A stretch of 64,000 nucleotides of DNA from Alphaproteobacteria bacterium (GTDB lineage: Bacteria; Pseudomonadota; Alphaproteobacteria; JAAXGF01), in assembly GCA_963555825.3 (NCBI GenBank), contig CAUVXB020000002.1:352001-416000 (forward strand). The letters run 5' to 3'. Below, piece after piece: positions 20,555 through 29,702 of this stretch. Every line of letters begins with the position of its first letter. Position 1 is the stretch's first letter. The translations under genes were made by a program, and so were the position numbers. The notes below the pieces were generated by a model. That model saw only the letters and a list, made by a program, of their open reading frames with translations. It had not been told where the DNA came from and made no database searches.

Positions 20555-21049
20555 CTATTGCCTGCACTCTCCGACCGAGCCGCCCTTGCACTTGGTCGTG
20601 CCGTCTGTCCACGTCGCCCCGGCCATCCTGACCGCGCCCAGCTTGGCCCCGTCCAGGTTGGCGTCGGTGAGGTTGGCCCTTTCCAAATTGGCCTCTTCCA
20701 GGTTGGCCCCCGACAGGTCGGCGCCCGACAGGTCGGCGTCCTTCAAGATGGCCTTCATGAGCTTGGCGTTTTTCAGGTTGGCCCCCGACAGGTCGGCGCT
20801 CGTCAGATCGGCGCCACGAAGGTCCGCCTTCTCGAGATTGGCGTCCTTGAGCTTGGAATGGTGAAGGACGGCGTCCTCGAGAACGGCCCGCTTCAGGTTC
20901 GCGCCCTCGAAGTCCTTCCTCGCGAAATCGCATTTGGACCAGATTACATAGGCGGCCGGCGGGTCATAACATTCCGCGCTCGCCGGCGGCGGCGTCATAA
21001 GCCATACCGCCGCGAGCGCCGGTAACGCGAGTCGTACGCCATTGTTCAT
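20555..21049 (-). CDS. Secreted pentapeptide-repeat protein
   Basis: Signal peptide; A(D/N)LxG repeats; C-terminal WTDG..C..S.G.C. Confidence 0.9.
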   Translation of the reverse strand: MNNGVRLALPALAAVWLMTPPPASAECYDPPAAYVIWSKCDFARKDFEGANLKRAVLEDAVLHHSKLKDANLEKADLRGADLTSADLSGANLKNAKLMKAILKDADLSGADLSGANLEEANLERANLTDANLDGAKLGAVRMAGATWTDGTTKCKGGSVGECRQ

Positions 21050-21506: not shown

Positions 21507-22139
21507 TCATAATGGTTTGTACATGCGTTGTTCAGCGTCTTTTTCGGGATTTCGGAGCACGCGCTGGCCCTCGGGCAGGGCGAGCTGCTCGGTCAGGTAG
21601 ATGGCGCGCTGGCGGACGGTCGCCGGTCGCGGCGTGCCGTAAATGACCCTGTCGATCAGGCCGGGGCCATCGATGGCGCCCTCGTCGATCATCAGCGCCT
21701 GGATGTAATCGGCGAGCGCCTTCTCATAGCGTCCCGTGCGGTCGTACAGGATCCCCCGGTTGGCGTAAGCGGCGGCGTGCACCGCGATCCCCGTGGCGTC
21801 GTCTGACTCCAAGTTATCGCGGAGGAAATCGATCAGGTACGTGAACTCGGCCTCGGTATCGGCGTAGCGCTCGCTCTGCAAGAACACTAGTCCCCGTCCC
21901 ATCAGCGCTCCGCGATGGTCGGGCGAGACCGCGAGTGCCGTGTTGAAGCGCTCAAGGGCCGCTTCGTACTTGCCGTCGCCCAACAGGATGTCGCCCTGGC
22001 GGACCTCGTAGTCGCCCGTTGGGGCCTCGGCATAATTCCTGACCACTGCCCAGAAACTGAACATGCCGAAGGTGGCGAGCGCCATCAGGATGATAAACCG
22101 CCTCAGAACTTTGGGGTTGGTGAACGTTTTCAGGTTCAT
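21507..22139 (-). CDS. Membrane-anchored TPR protein
   Basis: N-terminal TM; YEAALERFN.AL..P, ALMGRG, AYANRGILYD..G.YEKALADY. Confidence 0.82.
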   Translation of the reverse strand: MNLKTFTNPKVLRRFIILMALATFGMFSFWAVVRNYAEAPTGDYEVRQGDILLGDGKYEAALERFNTALAVSPDHRGALMGRGLVFLQSERYADTEAEFTYLIDFLRDNLESDDATGIAVHAAAYANRGILYDRTGRYEKALADYIQALMIDEGAIDGPGLIDRVIYGTPRPATVRQRAIYLTEQLALPEGQRVLRNPEKDAEQRMYKPL

Positions 22140-22159
22140 CGCGGTCCGCCGAACATCAC

Positions 22160-22402
22160 CTAGCCGTAAGCGGCGGCGAAAGCCAGGCACAAGAGCGCCG
22201 ACGTGACCCCGGCACGGCGTTTCATCGAGTCCATGTCTTCCTCGCCGGGAAGCTCCCCGGTTCGTCGCTGGGCCCGGCGCACCGACAGCACCCAGATCAG
22301 TTGCCGCACGGGGAAGAACAGGGCGATCCCAAGCGCCGCCACCCACAACCATCTGTATTCTGGAGAAACCGCTGCCTCCACGGCGAAACACCTTCGTGCC
22401 AA
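22160..22402 (-). CDS. Small 2-TM hypothetical protein (possibly prematurely stopped; start uncertain)
   Basis: WLWVAALGIALFFPVRQLIWVLSVRR..KRRAGVTSALLC; lies between the symporter and the TPR gene. Confidence 0.65.
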   Translation of the reverse strand: MARRCFAVEAAVSPEYRWLWVAALGIALFFPVRQLIWVLSVRRAQRRTGELPGEEDMDSMKRRAGVTSALLCLAFAAAYG

Positions 22403-22438
22403 TGATCGGCGCGACCGAGCGACGCGCGGGATGGTAAC

Positions 22439-22473
22439 AAAAAAATCGGGGGAAGGACATCGTCCTTCCCCCG
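22439..22473 (-). terminator. Intrinsic terminator after the solute symporter
   Basis: 12-bp perfect stem CGGGGGAAGGAC / GTCCTTCCCCCG with 3-nt loop, then T7 on the minus strand. Confidence 0.8.
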
Positions 22474-22496: not shown

Positions 22497-24488
22497 CTAC
22501 GTCCGCTGGGCCTGTTCCTCGGCGGTGTCGCCGATGTCTTCCACCAGAGCCTCGATATTCTTTTCGGGGATGGTGGACATCTCCATCTTGTAGGCGAGGA
22601 ACCACATCATGGCCACGCCGAGCAGCCAGAACAGGATCTGCCAGGCCCAGATGGAGGGCATGCCGAAGGTCCAGCCATCGACGCCGGCGTCCGGCGCGCC
22701 GAAGATATCGTTGCCGATGACGGCGCCGGGGCCGATACCGAAGAACATCCAAGCGATCGTAATGATCCAGGCGACCGGAACCAGCCCTTTCTTCGACGCG
22801 GGCAGGCTCGCGTGTTCTCGCAGGAAGTTGTGGTACTTCATGCGGTGGCCGAGATCTTCCGCGCTCTGCGTCATCGACGAGACGATCACGCAAGTGGTGG
22901 CGTTGAGGAGCATGCCCCAGCCGGCCGAGTGAATGGTAAGCGGCCAGCGGCCCCAGAAATCGATTCCCATGTCGCTGAGAATCCCGAGGCCGAACTTTTC
23001 GGTAAAGATCACGCCGATGATGCCGGCCAGCAGGCCATAGGTGGCGCCCTGACGCGTGATCCACGGAATCCAGCACACGGCCGCCAGCGGCGTCCACATC
23101 TGGAAGCCGAAGGCCACCGCAAGACCGCCCAGGAGCACCAGGGCGTCACGTGAGTACGTGGCCACCAGCAGGGCGGCTACGACGATGAAGCCAACGCCCA
23201 TGCGCCCGGCCAGCTTCTGCATCCTGTGCGTGGAAGCCGGGTTCAGGTAACGCTTATATAGATCCCGGGTGAGAATCCCGCCGGCGGTCGACATGTATGC
23301 CGCGCCGGTGGATTGCATGGCCGCCAGGGCGCAAACCGCCAATATTCCGACGAGCCACGGCGAGGTTTCCGAGATCAGGTTCATATAGTGCGCCACCAAC
23401 GAGTCCGGCTTTGCCGCAATCGAAGCCGGCAGCACATTGGAAATCGCCAAGCCGGCCTCCGTCACCGCCGGGTTGGCGCCCAGAAGGTGCGCGCCCATGC
23501 CCGTGAACGCGGTGAAGAAGAACAGGATGAAGCCGATCCCGAGCGAGGACGCCCACACCTGCTGCGGCGCGAACGGCCGCGGATCGGTGTTGGAGAACGA
23601 CCACATGGTGAACGCCGGGGCCGACTGAATGCCCATCAGCGCGAACATGTAGGTCAGGCACATGATGCCTGTCCACAGACCGCCAACCGGAGTCGCCTTG
23701 CCGAGCCCGGCCGTCCACTGGATGACCCCGGGGATGGCGAAATAGGCGTTGTAGTCGCCCCCTCCATAGCCCTGGGTGGTGCCCCACTTGCCGACGTCCG
23801 AAGCGGCCAGATTGGCCAATCCCTGTTGCATCGCATCCCAGCCGCCGACCGCGTTCAGCGCGATCGAGCCGTATATGATGATGCCCATGGCGAGCAGGAT
23901 GCATTGGAGGGTGTCGACGTAGGCCACGGCGCGCAGGCCGCCCGACGCCACGTAGATGAACACCACGATCGACAGGATCCACATGCCCACGTTCTGTGTG
24001 AACATGCCGTCCGGGAAGGCATCCGTCACCGTGATGACGTTGAACAGATACCCAGACGCCCCCAACTGCACGCCAAGATACGGAATGGAGTACAGCAGGG
24101 CCACGATCACCGTCAGGATGCGGATGAAGTCACCCTGGAAATAGGTGCCAAGCATCTCGCCCGGCGTCACGAAGCCGAAACGCTTGCCCAGCATCCATTG
24201 GCGTTTCAGGAAGATGACCCCAGTGAACGGGATGGTGATGGTGTAAAACGATGCGTACGCATACTGGAAGCCATCGCGATACACCAGACCCGGGTGGCCC
24301 ATGAAGGTCCAGCCCGAAAACGATGTGGCGGTGGCCGCCAATATAAACACCCAAAGGGACAGCCTACGGCCAGCGATGAAGTAATCGGTGGCTGTCTTTG
24401 CCATTTGCGCGCTTCGCCAGCCCCAATAGATGCAGTACACCCAGTAGAGCACCACAAACATGAACAACCAGATAATTTTTGCAGACAC
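22497..24488 (-). CDS. Sodium:solute symporter (SSS/SLC5), possibly for a monocarboxylate
   Basis: DYFIAGR, TSFSGWTFMGHPG, GGLRAVAYVD..Q, LAAMQST; about 14 TM; GTG start. Confidence 0.9.
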   Translation of the reverse strand: MSAKIIWLFMFVVLYWVYCIYWGWRSAQMAKTATDYFIAGRRLSLWVFILAATATSFSGWTFMGHPGLVYRDGFQYAYASFYTITIPFTGVIFLKRQWMLGKRFGFVTPGEMLGTYFQGDFIRILTVIVALLYSIPYLGVQLGASGYLFNVITVTDAFPDGMFTQNVGMWILSIVVFIYVASGGLRAVAYVDTLQCILLAMGIIIYGSIALNAVGGWDAMQQGLANLAASDVGKWGTTQGYGGGDYNAYFAIPGVIQWTAGLGKATPVGGLWTGIMCLTYMFALMGIQSAPAFTMWSFSNTDPRPFAPQQVWASSLGIGFILFFFTAFTGMGAHLLGANPAVTEAGLAISNVLPASIAAKPDSLVAHYMNLISETSPWLVGILAVCALAAMQSTGAAYMSTAGGILTRDLYKRYLNPASTHRMQKLAGRMGVGFIVVAALLVATYSRDALVLLGGLAVAFGFQMWTPLAAVCWIPWITRQGATYGLLAGIIGVIFTEKFGLGILSDMGIDFWGRWPLTIHSAGWGMLLNATTCVIVSSMTQSAEDLGHRMKYHNFLREHASLPASKKGLVPVAWIITIAWMFFGIGPGAVIGNDIFGAPDAGVDGWTFGMPSIWAWQILFWLLGVAMMWFLAYKMEMSTIPEKNIEALVEDIGDTAEEQAQRT

Positions 24489-24711
24489 GATCTCGCCCCC
24501 GTGATCTTACATTTCCGGCGCCGAAAACGCCGATCAACCACCGGTCGGGTGTTCAAGCAGGAGCAACCCTCGGCATGATCAATGCATTTCGCGACACCAC
24601 GTCACCATAACAATCCTGCCTCACATGGCCAAGCGATATTTCGCCCCGCGACACAACATTTACGCCACCAGAAGGATACCGCCTGGGGGATTACCCCCAA
24701 AATTTGCGATT

Positions 24712-24790
24712 ATTTTGTGCGCTGCATCATTATACTTTCGCGTCGCAGATCAATGCTGCAACTGCGTGATAGTTTTTGTGTGCTGCACCA
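24712..24790. promoter_or_regulatory. Cluster of TGC-rich motifs resembling PhaR/AniA operators upstream of the symporter
   Basis: TGCGCTGCATCA (24718), TGCTGCAACTGC (24754), TGTGCTGCACCA (24779) in an AT-rich intergenic region. Confidence 0.4.
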
Positions 24791-24849
24791 ATAGTCGACT
24801 TGCAGGGCGAACCGCGCGGTATCGTCCGCGGCCTTCGGTCGCGCGACGG

Positions 24850-25788
24850 TCAGGGAACGGTTGGCAGGGAAACGTGGAATGTGGCGCCTTCGCCGGGACG
24901 GCTTTCGACGCCGATCCGCCCGTTGTGCCGCTCGACGATCGCCTTGCTCAGCGCCAGACTGAAGCCGGCCCCATGCGGCTCGCTCTCCAGGGTGTCGCCG
25001 GCTTCCAGGAACTGGGCGAAAATGATGCCATGGCGGGCGGGCGGAATGCCGGGTCCGTTGTCGCTGACGGCAACGCGCGCGGCCCCCTCGGTGGTTTCGA
25101 GTCCAAGCGTGACGCGGCCCGTGCCGGGCTCGGAAAATTTTGCCGCGTTGGCCAGCAAGCTCTCGATCACCTGAGCCAGCCAGCGCCGATCGCCACGAAC
25201 CGTCGCGCCCGGCTGTGCAACCGCCGCCTCCAGGTTCACGCACTTCAAATCGAACAGCGGCCGCGTCGCGTCGATCGCCACGTCGATCGGCTCGCCGATG
25301 TCGAATTCGGCCGGTTCCCAGTCGAGGCGCCCCGAGCGCAGCCGCGACCAGCTGACGATCTGGTCGATCAAATGCGACAAGCGCGCGCCTTCGGCGATGG
25401 CGATATCGAGAAAACTCGCCCGTTGCTGGAGCGTGAGCTCATCACCGTCGGCGAGAATTTCGGAAAACGAGCATAGCGAGGTCAGCGGCGACAGGAGCTT
25501 GTGGGAGATCGCCCCAACGAACCCGTCGGGCAACCAACCAGCCTCCGTCTGGAGACCGTCGTTGGCGGCTTGCAGCACCGTCATGGCGTGCTCGAATTGG
25601 CGCAGCTTCGCTTCGAATGCGCCGCATTCGTCGATCAGCCCGCCGATCTCTCCGAGCATGCTCTGGATACCCGACTGGGCGTCGGCAAAGGCCGCTTGAT
25701 TGACGCCCTCCAGCGTCGCGACATTGCGCTGGTGACGCGCGAGCAGCGCGTCCCAATCAACGCCTGGCAGGGTGAACTTAGTGGTCAT
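24850..25788 (-). CDS. Soluble HisKA-HATPase protein with phasin-like N-terminus and degenerate H-box
   Basis: FTLPGVDWDALLARHQRNVATLEGVNQ.. then SHKLLSPL, NAAKF, DNGPGI, GAGFSL. Confidence 0.8.
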   Translation of the reverse strand: MTTKFTLPGVDWDALLARHQRNVATLEGVNQAAFADAQSGIQSMLGEIGGLIDECGAFEAKLRQFEHAMTVLQAANDGLQTEAGWLPDGFVGAISHKLLSPLTSLCSFSEILADGDELTLQQRASFLDIAIAEGARLSHLIDQIVSWSRLRSGRLDWEPAEFDIGEPIDVAIDATRPLFDLKCVNLEAAVAQPGATVRGDRRWLAQVIESLLANAAKFSEPGTGRVTLGLETTEGAARVAVSDNGPGIPPARHGIIFAQFLEAGDTLESEPHGAGFSLALSKAIVERHNGRIGVESRPGEGATFHVSLPTVP

Positions 25789-25903
25789 TCTCGCCTACCG
25801 TTCCGCGATCCACGCTTCGGCGCGGTCACCGGCTGCGCACTGTACAGGGGCGGCGTTCGAAATGCTATTGTCGCCGCCGGAGCGTGACGCATTCGCGGCG
25901 TCG

Positions 25904-28663
<2,760 letters not shown>

Positions 28664-28665
28664 CG

Positions 28666-28908
28666 TCAGTCCTTCGCGCCGGTCGCTGGCGGTGCCGGCG
28701 ATGTCTCGACGACCGCGAACCACGCGGTCAATCGCATCAAGGCGATCAACCCGGCCCAGGCGGCGAAGAGGTAGACATAGAACAGCGGAATTCCGAAGAC
28801 GTAGGCGTCGATGTTGAACAGCAGTAGTACCGGCGCATTGAAGGCGAGAACCCCGAGCAGAAACAACGCGACCATCCGCTCGCGATTGATTTTCCGGTGT
28901 CTGATCAT
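28666..28908 (-). CDS. Small 2-TM partner protein of the type found upstream of SLC5 genes
   Basis: LFLLGVLAFNAP..VFGIPLFYVYLFAAW; stop lies 2 nt before the kinase start. Confidence 0.75.
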   Translation of the reverse strand: MIRHRKINRERMVALFLLGVLAFNAPVLLLFNIDAYVFGIPLFYVYLFAAWAGLIALMRLTAWFAVVETSPAPPATGAKD

Positions 28909-29324
28909 AGTGGCCGTCGTCCCTACTCGCGGTCGCCACGAGGCCGCCCATCCGGGCGGTCACGTCGAAACAAACCGCCAACATTGTAACCCGTGGCGGC
29001 GCCACGCGGGAGTCGCAATTCCGGGCGCCGGCGCGCCGCCGAAACGATGCGTCAGAATTGCGCCTGCGGCCTGCGCAGTTCGACCATCGAGGCGGCGGTC
29101 GCGAGGGCGTCGCCGAGCGTCCGTGAGCCGCGCTGCTCTACGAGGTCGATCGTGCACAGAAAGACCGTCGACCATCGTCGCCTTGGTCGCGACATCGTCG
29201 GCATAAGCCGCCGGCCCGACGACGATCCATAGTGCGATCGCGGTTTCCTACAACACGGCAACGCCGAGCGCGGCGAACAGCAACGCGACGGTGGCGCGCG
29301 GGGTCATCGCTCCCAGGGCGCGCG

Positions 29325-29702
29325 TCAGTCCTCGACGCCTTCGACCAGGCTGCGCACGCGCGCGACGACCTCGCGTGTCGAAAACGGTTTGGTGATGTAG
29401 TCGTCGGCGCCCAGCGCCAAGCCCTTCTCGATCTCGACATCGCGTCCCTTGGCGGTCAGCATGATGATCCGTATGTCGTGCCAATCGGGGTTGCCCCGGA
29501 TCGACCGGCAGACGTCGTAGCCGTTGCGCTTGGGCATCATCACGTCGAGCAGCACGAGCCTGGGCTTGCGGTGCTCGATCGCGCGCATCGCCGCTTCGCC
29601 GTCCCGCGCCACGCGCACGTCGTAGCCAGCCCGCTTCATCATGAACTCGAGCGAGATGACGATGTTCGGTTCGTCATCGACGATCAGCACCGAGGGTTTC
29701 AT
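29325..29702 (-). CDS. Single-domain response regulator
   Basis: LIVDDEPNI, LLDVMMP, MLTAKG, GADDYITKPF. Confidence 0.92.
   Translation of the reverse strand: MKPSVLIVDDEPNIVISLEFMMKRAGYDVRVARDGEAAMRAIEHRKPRLVLLDVMMPKRNGYDVCRSIRGNPDWHDIRIIMLTAKGRDVEIEKGLALGADDYITKPFSTREVVARVRSLVEGVED

Follow-up and report, generated by a model that had tools for sequence, protein, structure and literature searches.

A stretch of 64,000 nucleotides from an alphaproteobacterial genome (GenBank assembly GCA_963555825.3, contig CAUVXB020000002.1, positions 352,001 to 416,000; hereafter the window) carries on its minus strand a gene for a soluble histidine-kinase-like (HKL) protein. Read along that strand, the genes follow one another in the order receiver, 80-aa membrane open reading frame (ORF), SLC5-type kinase, HKL, a gap of 361 bp, sodium:solute symporter (SSF) and tetratricopeptide-repeat (TPR) protein (Table 1). 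An earlier, purely sequence-based annotation, referred to below as the original prediction, had read HKL as a degenerate kinase with a phasin-like N-terminus, and translation of the ORF yields the N-terminus and the kinase core as they were quoted there. We describe evidence that HKL is most likely a pseudokinase, as judged from its residues, that its core has the ancestry of CbrA-like transceptor kinases, and that its N-terminal tip is homologous to the N-termini of phasins, the coat proteins of polyhydroxybutyrate (PHB) granules.

Table 1. Features of the HKL locus, in window coordinates, and the evidence on which each is based
Feature	Position	Strand	Basis
HKL gene (P0001), histidine-kinase-like soluble protein of 312 aa	24850..25788	-	ORF, translation, Pfam, orthologues, dN/dS
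Phasin-derived segment, aa 4-38: pre-helix F-x-L-P-G-x-D, then ~27 residues at the start of the long helix	25675..25779	-	hhalign, shuffles, profile search, AlphaFold2
Single unbroken predicted helix, aa 12-85	25534..25755	-	AlphaFold2 pLDDT 81-91; BLASTP match to neighbour begins at aa 41
L-P-D-G helix break, aa 86-89, between N-terminal helix and DHp helix 1	25522..25533	-	20 HKL rows, AlphaFold2
HisKA (DHp) domain, aa 90-153, with degenerate H box H96-K-L-L-S-P-L-T	25330..25521	-	Pfam, residue tables
HATPase_c (CA) domain, aa 199-310, N/G1/F/G2 boxes intact	24859..25194	-	Pfam E 6e-25
CbrA-like transceptor histidine kinase of the SLC5/STAC type, 919 aa when read from ATG 28663	25904..28663	-	PDB match, HisKA + HATPase_c, orthologue starts
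Small hydrophobic membrane ORF of 80 aa, in CbrX-like position	28666..28908	-	TGA 28668-28666, 2 nt before kinase ATG 28663-28661
Stand-alone receiver of 125 aa, without output domain	29325..29702	-	Pfam Response_reg E 2e-30
Sodium:solute symporter family transporter, 663 aa	22497..24488	-	Pfam SSF E 6e-28; synteny in G002, G009, G011, L124, L126
HKL-symporter intergenic region with TGCA-rich repeats and TTGGC block	24489..24849	-	Alignment of 5 loci

Pfam recognizes two domains in HKL, HisKA (E 4e-9, 36.8 bits against a gathering cut-off of 26.9) and HATPase_c (88.3 bits against a cut-off of 26.4), and no further domain at E<=1, sensor domains included; NCBIfam returned generic kinase matches only, all below threshold. 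There is no transmembrane segment, the highest mean hydropathy of any 19-residue Kyte-Doolittle window being 1.09, so that the protein lacks both a membrane anchor and a sensor domain, as had been predicted. An AlphaFold2 model built from 15 orthologues (mean predicted local distance difference test score, pLDDT, 80) has residues 1-11 extended, a helix from 12 to 85, a break at 86-89, the DHp helices at 90-113 and 120-151, and then the CA domain, in which the ATP lid (residues 253-274) is modelled with low confidence. The best structural matches found by Foldseek are HK853 (E 1.5e-19), DivL, YycG, GacS and RetS. Residues 41-88 are homologous to the coiled-coil linker that precedes HisKA in SLC5-type kinases. 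The kinase core therefore does not follow directly upon the phasin-like 40 residues, as the original prediction had it, but is preceded by a linker helix that HKL has in common with the neighbouring kinase. The end of this helix distinguishes HKL from these kinases: L86, P87 and G89 are invariant in all 20 aligned HKL sequences, while the 45 SLC5-type kinase cores used for comparison carry a lysine at the position of P87 and an aspartate or glutamate at that of G89. The family-specific L-P-x-G thus takes the place of L-K-x-D/E and coincides with the break of the modelled helix, which argues for a tether over a rigid, signal-transmitting helix.

The same two sets of sequences, 20 HKL rows (some with identical cores: L125 and P0011, L014 and P0010) and 45 SLC5-type cores, were compared at the residues needed for catalysis. 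All 45 SLC5-type cores retain the motif H-E-x-R-T. In HKL, the acceptor position holds a histidine in 8 sequences and a proline in 12; H+1 is K (9), R (5), T (3) or A (3), and never acidic; the arginine at H+3 is replaced by leucine in 19 sequences and by valine in one; and the threonine at H+4 is a serine in all 20. Two further representatives of the family, P0123 and P0124, have a histidine followed by lysine and arginine, respectively, and P0123 has an alanine at H+4. According to PMC3510030, an acidic residue at H+1 is required for autokinase activity, and a threonine or asparagine at H+4 for phosphatase activity. By this comparison, the residues of autokinase activity are lost throughout the HKL family, and HKL is most likely a pseudokinase. 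The original prediction had noted the retained histidine, the lysine next to it and a G2 box reading GAGFSL, all of which are indeed present in the protein of the window (H96, K97 and residues 273-278); the degeneracy of the family goes well beyond what could be seen in that single protein. GAGFSL itself had been counted as a sign of degeneracy. However, it retains both invariant glycines of the G2 box and is therefore no evidence of lost ATP binding. Indeed, N214, D243, G245, G247, G273 and G275 are kept in all 20 sequences and K217 in 19, a pattern consistent with continued nucleotide binding by HKL.

These intact N, G1, F and G2 boxes, the presence of H96, the retained docking positions described below and domain scores above both Pfam cut-offs could also mean that the histidine-bearing lineage, to which the protein of the window belongs, is an active soluble kinase that autophosphorylates H96 and feeds the same receiver as its neighbour. 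We regard this as improbable. HKL of this lineage has a lysine at H+1 and a leucine at H+3, where the related, active-type cores have glutamate and arginine in 45 cases out of 45, and the change from histidine to proline in 12 of the 20 sequences occurred while the rest of the protein was conserved.

A different set of residues is unchanged between HKL and the SLC5-type kinases: T at H+7, S/A at H+8, S at H+11, F/Y at H+12, I at H+15, and I129. Residue 132 agrees as well, being K/R, or A in the subgroup of HKL found in the window. Through the alignment, H+8, H+11, H+15, I129 and residue 132 correspond to A268, A271, T275, V294 and D297 of HK853, which are the residues rewired for receiver specificity according to the titles of PDB entries 4jas and 4jau. 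This suggests that HKL may dock the stand-alone receiver of the pathway, itself likely the cognate response regulator of the SLC5 kinase. That HKL is a pseudokinase acting on this kinase/receiver pathway is, in our judgement, quite probable.

The parallel drawn in the original prediction between the HKL core and the neighbouring kinase is borne out: residues 41-309 align by BLASTP with residues 750-1017 of the neighbour (numbered in a 1033-aa ORF; see below) at 35% identity (E 2e-48). Within the genome, the neighbour is the nearest paralogue of the core (E 2.4e-44, the next kinase scoring 1e-27). A tree was inferred for 15 HKL cores, 45 SLC5-type cores and 6 further kinases encoded by the genome; 38 additional SLC5-type loci were omitted by keeping every second one, for reasons of run time. 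HKL is monophyletic in this tree (SH-like approximate likelihood ratio test, SH-aLRT, 100), on a stem of length 1.15, and forms with the SLC5-type cores one clade against the other kinases of the genome (SH-aLRT 95), within which it has no resolved position. By its place in the tree, the HKL core descends from CbrA-like SLC5/STAC transceptor kinases. Forcing HKL to be the sister of the SLC5 kinases of its own lineage lowers the log-likelihood by 8.9 units, a loss that does not lead to rejection (approximately unbiased test, p = 0.22), so that an old local duplication is a possible origin of the gene; if there was such a duplication it must be old, because of the 35% identity and the length of the stem. 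Of the duplication that had been proposed, the SLC5 ancestry thus stands, while the local event is not demonstrated. Elsewhere in the genome (G000, contig C2), two histidine-kinase ORFs about 19 kb apart (132389-134863 and 151689-154163), each matching HKL at 32% in tblastn, have identical kinase cores, which suggests a recent duplication there.

The N-terminus of HKL has another source. Residues 1-89 match the only Phasin_2 protein of the genome, P0122, with 37% identity over 52 residues (BLASTP, pairwise E 2e-6). Translated in six frames, the genome contains 65,221 ORFs of 50 aa or longer. When these were searched with a hidden Markov model (HMM) of residues 1-62 from 15 orthologues, the phasin was the top non-self match (E 4.8e-4, the next at 0.051); with models of residues 1-40 and 1-88 it was found at E 0.0059 and 0.0013, respectively. 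In the opposite direction, an HMM of 29 phasins from relatives matched, in the same ORF set, the phasin and HKL only (HKL at E 0.017), which makes the two proteins reciprocal best non-self matches. The 29-phasin model also matched all 15 HKL orthologues within residues 2-61, with E values of 1.9e-4 to 0.34 at the database size of the genome ORFs. Aligned with hhalign, the HKL and phasin profiles gave probabilities of 95-96% and P values of 6e-9 to 7e-8 over 32-35 columns (residues 4-38). The score, 47.7, compares with 10.6 +/- 2.0, and at most 18.2, in 200 column shuffles, and with 17.8 for the reversed query.

A library of 1,835,955,588 representative proteins was searched with a profile of 62 positions made from seven DNA-derived HKL N-termini, and E<=0.001 was reached by 29 matches. 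HKL proteins account for two of them (E 7.7e-26 and 6e-9), and small single-stretch proteins, 87-184 aa long, for 22 (best E 4.2e-7); the other five, multi-stretch repeat proteins with LysM arrays among them, are regarded as spurious. Pfam Phasin_2 was recognized in 20 of the 25 matches that were scanned (the 22 small ones and three long ones), and in none of the long ones. In this search the HKL N-terminus was seen on no other architecture. An ESM Atlas look-up of residues 1-60 returned only unnamed clusters scoring 0.80, which is the level of chance. The profile comparisons confirm, far beyond chance, that the N-terminus of HKL is homologous to those of phasins. The block in common reads F-x-h-P-x-x-D, followed by a helix with R-N-x-E-A-h-x-x-A-N; it is the best-conserved block of phasins, made of the pre-helix motif and about half of helix 1, and the long helix begins at the aligned position in both AlphaFold2 models (residue 12 in HKL, 26 in the phasin). 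The phasin likeness that had been proposed for the first 40 or so residues is therefore real in kind and somewhat smaller in extent. Some relatives also have Phasin_2 matches inside open frames of 304-329 aa (G009:C125:1403-1684, G011:C81:11591-11833 and G026:C1:1963464-1963754), which may encode longer proteins with a phasin domain or may be no more than long frames in GC-rich DNA.

A search for relatives over 5.8 billion protein clusters, in which 8000 candidates were scored and 1554 reached E<=0.001, identified 13 clusters (at the 90% identity level) of full-length HKL relatives, 312-322 aa long, with 97-100% coverage and 49-91% identity. Among 60 genomes of relatives, a full-length orthologue is present in 3 of the 12 that belong to the same family (G002, G009 and G011) and in none of the 48 from other families. 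A scan of 185,579 species genomes retained 79 loci, two of them full-length and corresponding to those of G009 and G011. The other 77 match HKL only from about residue 29-58 onward and are SLC5-type kinases, since these matches sit at the ends of long frames; their upstream open frames measure 436-796 aa unless cut by a contig end. Three more full-length loci came from metagenomes: L124 (89% identity), L125 and L126. The search for homologues of the same architecture beside SLC5 kinases, proposed in the original prediction, was thus successful: the order small ORF, SLC5 kinase, HKL, symporter recurs in the three same-family genomes and in L124 and L126.

The alternative that HKL is a decaying chimeric duplicate, or resembles phasins by chance or convergence, could invoke the long stem branch, the small and patchy family and the lack of a Pfam Phasin_2 match. 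The data make it very improbable. The ORF is intact in 20 of 20 rows, 80 columns are invariant over 15 HKL sequences, and the ratio of nonsynonymous to synonymous substitution rates (dN/dS) between the window and L124 is 0.29 (NG86) or 0.21 (YN00), to be compared with 0.14 for the SLC5 kinase and 0.25 for the receiver. By segment, in rough values that come, like the others, from this one pair with a dS of about 0.18, dN/dS is 0.25 for residues 1-40, 0.63 for residues 41-88, 0.14 for DHp and 0.32 for CA. HKL is thus maintained under purifying selection and is not decaying, which settles the question that the original prediction had left to dN/dS, with orthologues down to 49% identity. Against a chance likeness stand the shuffle controls and the search of the whole library.

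Among known proteins, HKL would work most like DivL or RetS, and is a member of neither family. In DivL of Caulobacter, the acceptor histidine is a tyrosine and the HisKA and HATPase_c fold is kept; in HKL, too, the histidine is dispensable. Among the Foldseek matches of HKL, DivL structure 4q20 ranks second (E 4.6e-19), and DivL is a sequence match as well. The kinase module of DivL reportedly serves a new purpose, that of sensing whether a single-domain receiver is phosphorylated (PMC4211667); this is the mode that we propose for HKL, on the strength of its HK853-type specificity positions. DivL differs in being a large, membrane-anchored, multi-PAS protein of a cell-cycle network, whereas HKL is soluble and compact, has proline or histidine at the acceptor site, and combines an SLC5/STAC ancestry with a phasin-derived tip. 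RetS of Pseudomonas likewise resembles a kinase and regulates another one without using its own phosphorylation, and its chains 6dk7 and 6dk8 match HKL in sequence and fold. RetS reportedly acts by disrupting the GacS dimer (PMC8498467). It is, however, a hybrid membrane sensor, and HKL retains its ATP-binding boxes.

CbrB, the regulator of the CbrA system, is of the NtrC type. The HKL core falls inside the clade of the SLC5/STAC kinases (CbrA, which goes with CbrX, CrbS and RpuS), but HKL is not itself such a kinase because the SLC5 and STAC domains are absent, as is any PAS part. The locus in the window combines a non-hybrid SLC5 kinase with a stand-alone receiver, unlike CrbS and RpuS, which are described in PMC9100948 as hybrid kinases with LuxR-type regulators. 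The same paper states that RpuS/R controls an adjacent solute:sodium symporter, which the symporter beside HKL resembles. No accessory kinase-like gene is mentioned for the described SLC5/STAC systems in the parts of PMC9100948 and PMC13022988 that were consulted. As to phasins of the Phasin_2 type (PhaP/ApdA, here P0122), HKL has in common with them the N-terminal block and the start of the helix; the phasins matched in the library are 87-184 aa long, while HKL has only their first 35 or so residues and then continues into the kinase linker. By the Pfam definition HKL is not a phasin.

The explanation that we favour for the whole, with a little better than even confidence, is that of a phasin-tipped pseudokinase which docks a receiver and uses its tip as a tether or an input. 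HKL would consist of three parts: the phasin-derived tip, a helix of 74 residues and an SLC5-type DHp and CA core. The core would dock the stand-alone receiver used by the transceptor kinase without phosphorylating it, and, once docked, would act as a phosphatase or sink, or else, like DivL, would read the receiver in its phosphorylated state. With L-P-x-G uncoupling it from DHp, the long helix would serve as an arm, whose tip might bind the phasin layer of PHB granules, or a partner of phasins. The state of the carbon store would thereby be linked to the transceptor pathway and to the adjacent symporter. The genome carries PhaC, PhaR and exactly one phasin gene, and can therefore make PHB. 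An association of HKL with granules or phasins is the most tentative part of this scheme and, taken by itself, somewhat unlikely. Bolder still is the version in which HKL resides on the storage organelle and the state of the granule surface (growth, shrinkage or phasin occupancy) gates binding or dephosphorylation of the receiver; we consider it unlikely.

Several observations weigh against the proposed scheme. On the side of the kinase, the serine found at H+4 in all 20 sequences, and the alanine in P0123, weaken the variant in which HKL is a phosphatase; the protein of the window retains H96 together with its ATP boxes, and some kinase activity is possible; the case for docking is one of residue conservation, and the same residues may serve dimerisation. 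The family is also small, with its 13 clusters among 5.8 billion. On the side of the tip, Pfam Phasin_2 (PF09361, gathering score 24.9 bits) matches neither the whole of HKL at E<=1 nor residues 1-89 or 1-60 at E<=10. This negative is real for that model, but it is overturned because the HKL and phasin family profiles match each other: the profile check suggested in the original prediction fails with the Pfam model and succeeds with hhalign. The 32-35 aligned columns amount to only about a quarter of a phasin. The AlphaFold2 model of the genome's phasin is a helical hairpin (helices 26-77 and 82-139), of which HKL lacks the second helix. The glutamate E38, invariant in 14 phasins, is an alanine (A24) in the HKL subgroup of the window, and the shared helix has a lower hydrophobic moment, by a crude measure, in HKL, with values of 0.14-0.24 against 0.33-0.44 for the phasin. 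The genes for PhaC, PhaR and the phasin, finally, all lie far from the HKL locus.

This absence of linkage to PHB genes and the presence of a mere fragment of a phasin favour another view, in which HKL is a pseudokinase confined to the two-component pathway and the phasin segment, unconnected with PHB, has merely been exapted as a helix for dimerisation or capping. HKL might then form DHp heterodimers with the SLC5 kinase, in the manner of RetS and GacS, or its CA domain might phosphorylate the neighbour's histidine in trans. The neighbour is indeed the nearest paralogue of the core, the ATP boxes are kept although HKL's own histidine is dispensable, and RetS is among the structural matches. 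We find this view possible but doubtful: HKL orthologues as distant as 49% identity retain the best-conserved block of phasins, and its dN/dS is 0.25, which exceeds the needs of a generic coiled coil, and the invariant L-P-x-G would uncouple the helix from DHp.

If the tip does target the phasin layer, as in the phasin-tipped scheme that we favour, HKL would be a direct molecular link between PHB carbon storage and nutrient-uptake signalling, and in the bolder version with HKL resident on the organelle, no two-component element before it would have been known to sit on a storage granule in bacteria. The way in which a cell perceives its own reserves is still an open question. Only a few histidine pseudokinases are known from bacteria, and those studied (DivL, RetS) have each revealed a new principle of wiring. 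The HKL family offers a compact, soluble case, in which the catalytic residues have apparently been erased selectively, leaving intact the positions for receiver specificity as well as the ATP site, and which has gained a piece of a granule coat protein. In the literature searched, which did not include subscription journals, neither this combination nor any described phasin-kinase fusion was found. Even without a link to granules, the finding marks the conserved N-terminal block of alphaproteobacterial phasins as a transferable module, which suggests an interaction motif rather than a generic amphipathic coating.

The neighbouring kinase is CbrA-like, because its residues 8-583 match PDB chain 10ed_A (E 5.9e-77) and entry 10ED is the CbrXA SLC5-STAC structure, as named in the CbrA preprint PMC13022988. 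An ORF of 1033 aa (25904-29005) had been considered for this gene and was rejected: the orthologues start at the methionine of MLQGW, and the sequence before it holds a conserved small ORF of its own. This small ORF is conserved in relatives and in 35 of the 77 other SLC5-kinase loci, and matches no Pfam family. The gene cbrX, described in PMC6591292, precedes cbrA, and the small ORF sits at the same place. A symporter gene lies directly downstream of HKL at every HKL locus that has downstream sequence. In the three same-family genomes, the kinase is separated from HKL by a CBS-DUF294 gene on the opposite strand, accompanied in G009 by glycosyltransferase-like ORFs.

The 77 SLC5-kinase loci without HKL (L018-L094) have, beside the kinase, a homologue of the stand-alone receiver in 70 cases, a PAS-exonuclease in 56, a CBS-DUF294 gene in 36 and a symporter in 11. 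They outline a widespread SLC5/STAC-kinase module, made of a receiver, a PAS and DEDDh exonuclease (RNase_T) protein, a small membrane ORF, the kinase and, on the opposite strand, a CBS-DUF294 nucleotidyltransferase, with no DNA-binding regulator nearby. A search of the window's genome found neither the PAS-exonuclease nor the DUF294 gene. HKL is a lineage-specific addition to this module.

Scans of positions 24300-26100 for Rfam families, promoters and terminators gave nothing above background. An alignment of five loci shows that the region between HKL and the symporter has conserved TGCA..GCA..AAA elements, which recur, and a TTGGC block that does not vary. This region is a candidate for regulator binding and promoter activity and probably holds a promoter of the symporter's own. 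A sigma-54-like reading of the TTGGC block was dropped, the spacing, counted by eye, being one base short of the consensus. RNA-library contigs extend over the symporter in four runs from two studies, ending at 24582-24592 in three, and over parts of HKL in two runs of one study; contig depths cannot rank genes, and uncovered stretches, which include most of the SLC5 kinase gene, show nothing. The contigs are a weak hint, in line with HKL being expressed and with the symporter having its own promoter, and prove neither.

Compared with L124, the symporter (L124 5800-7758) has diverged more than the genes next to it, with 72.7% amino acid identity and a dS of 0.79, against 95.5% and 0.16 for the kinase and 88.7% and 0.18 for HKL, which suggests recombination or gene replacement. 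Downstream of the symporter lie the TPR protein (21507-22460), syntenic in G002, L124 and L126, and a secreted-looking pentapeptide-repeat protein (20555-21049, Pfam E 2e-32).

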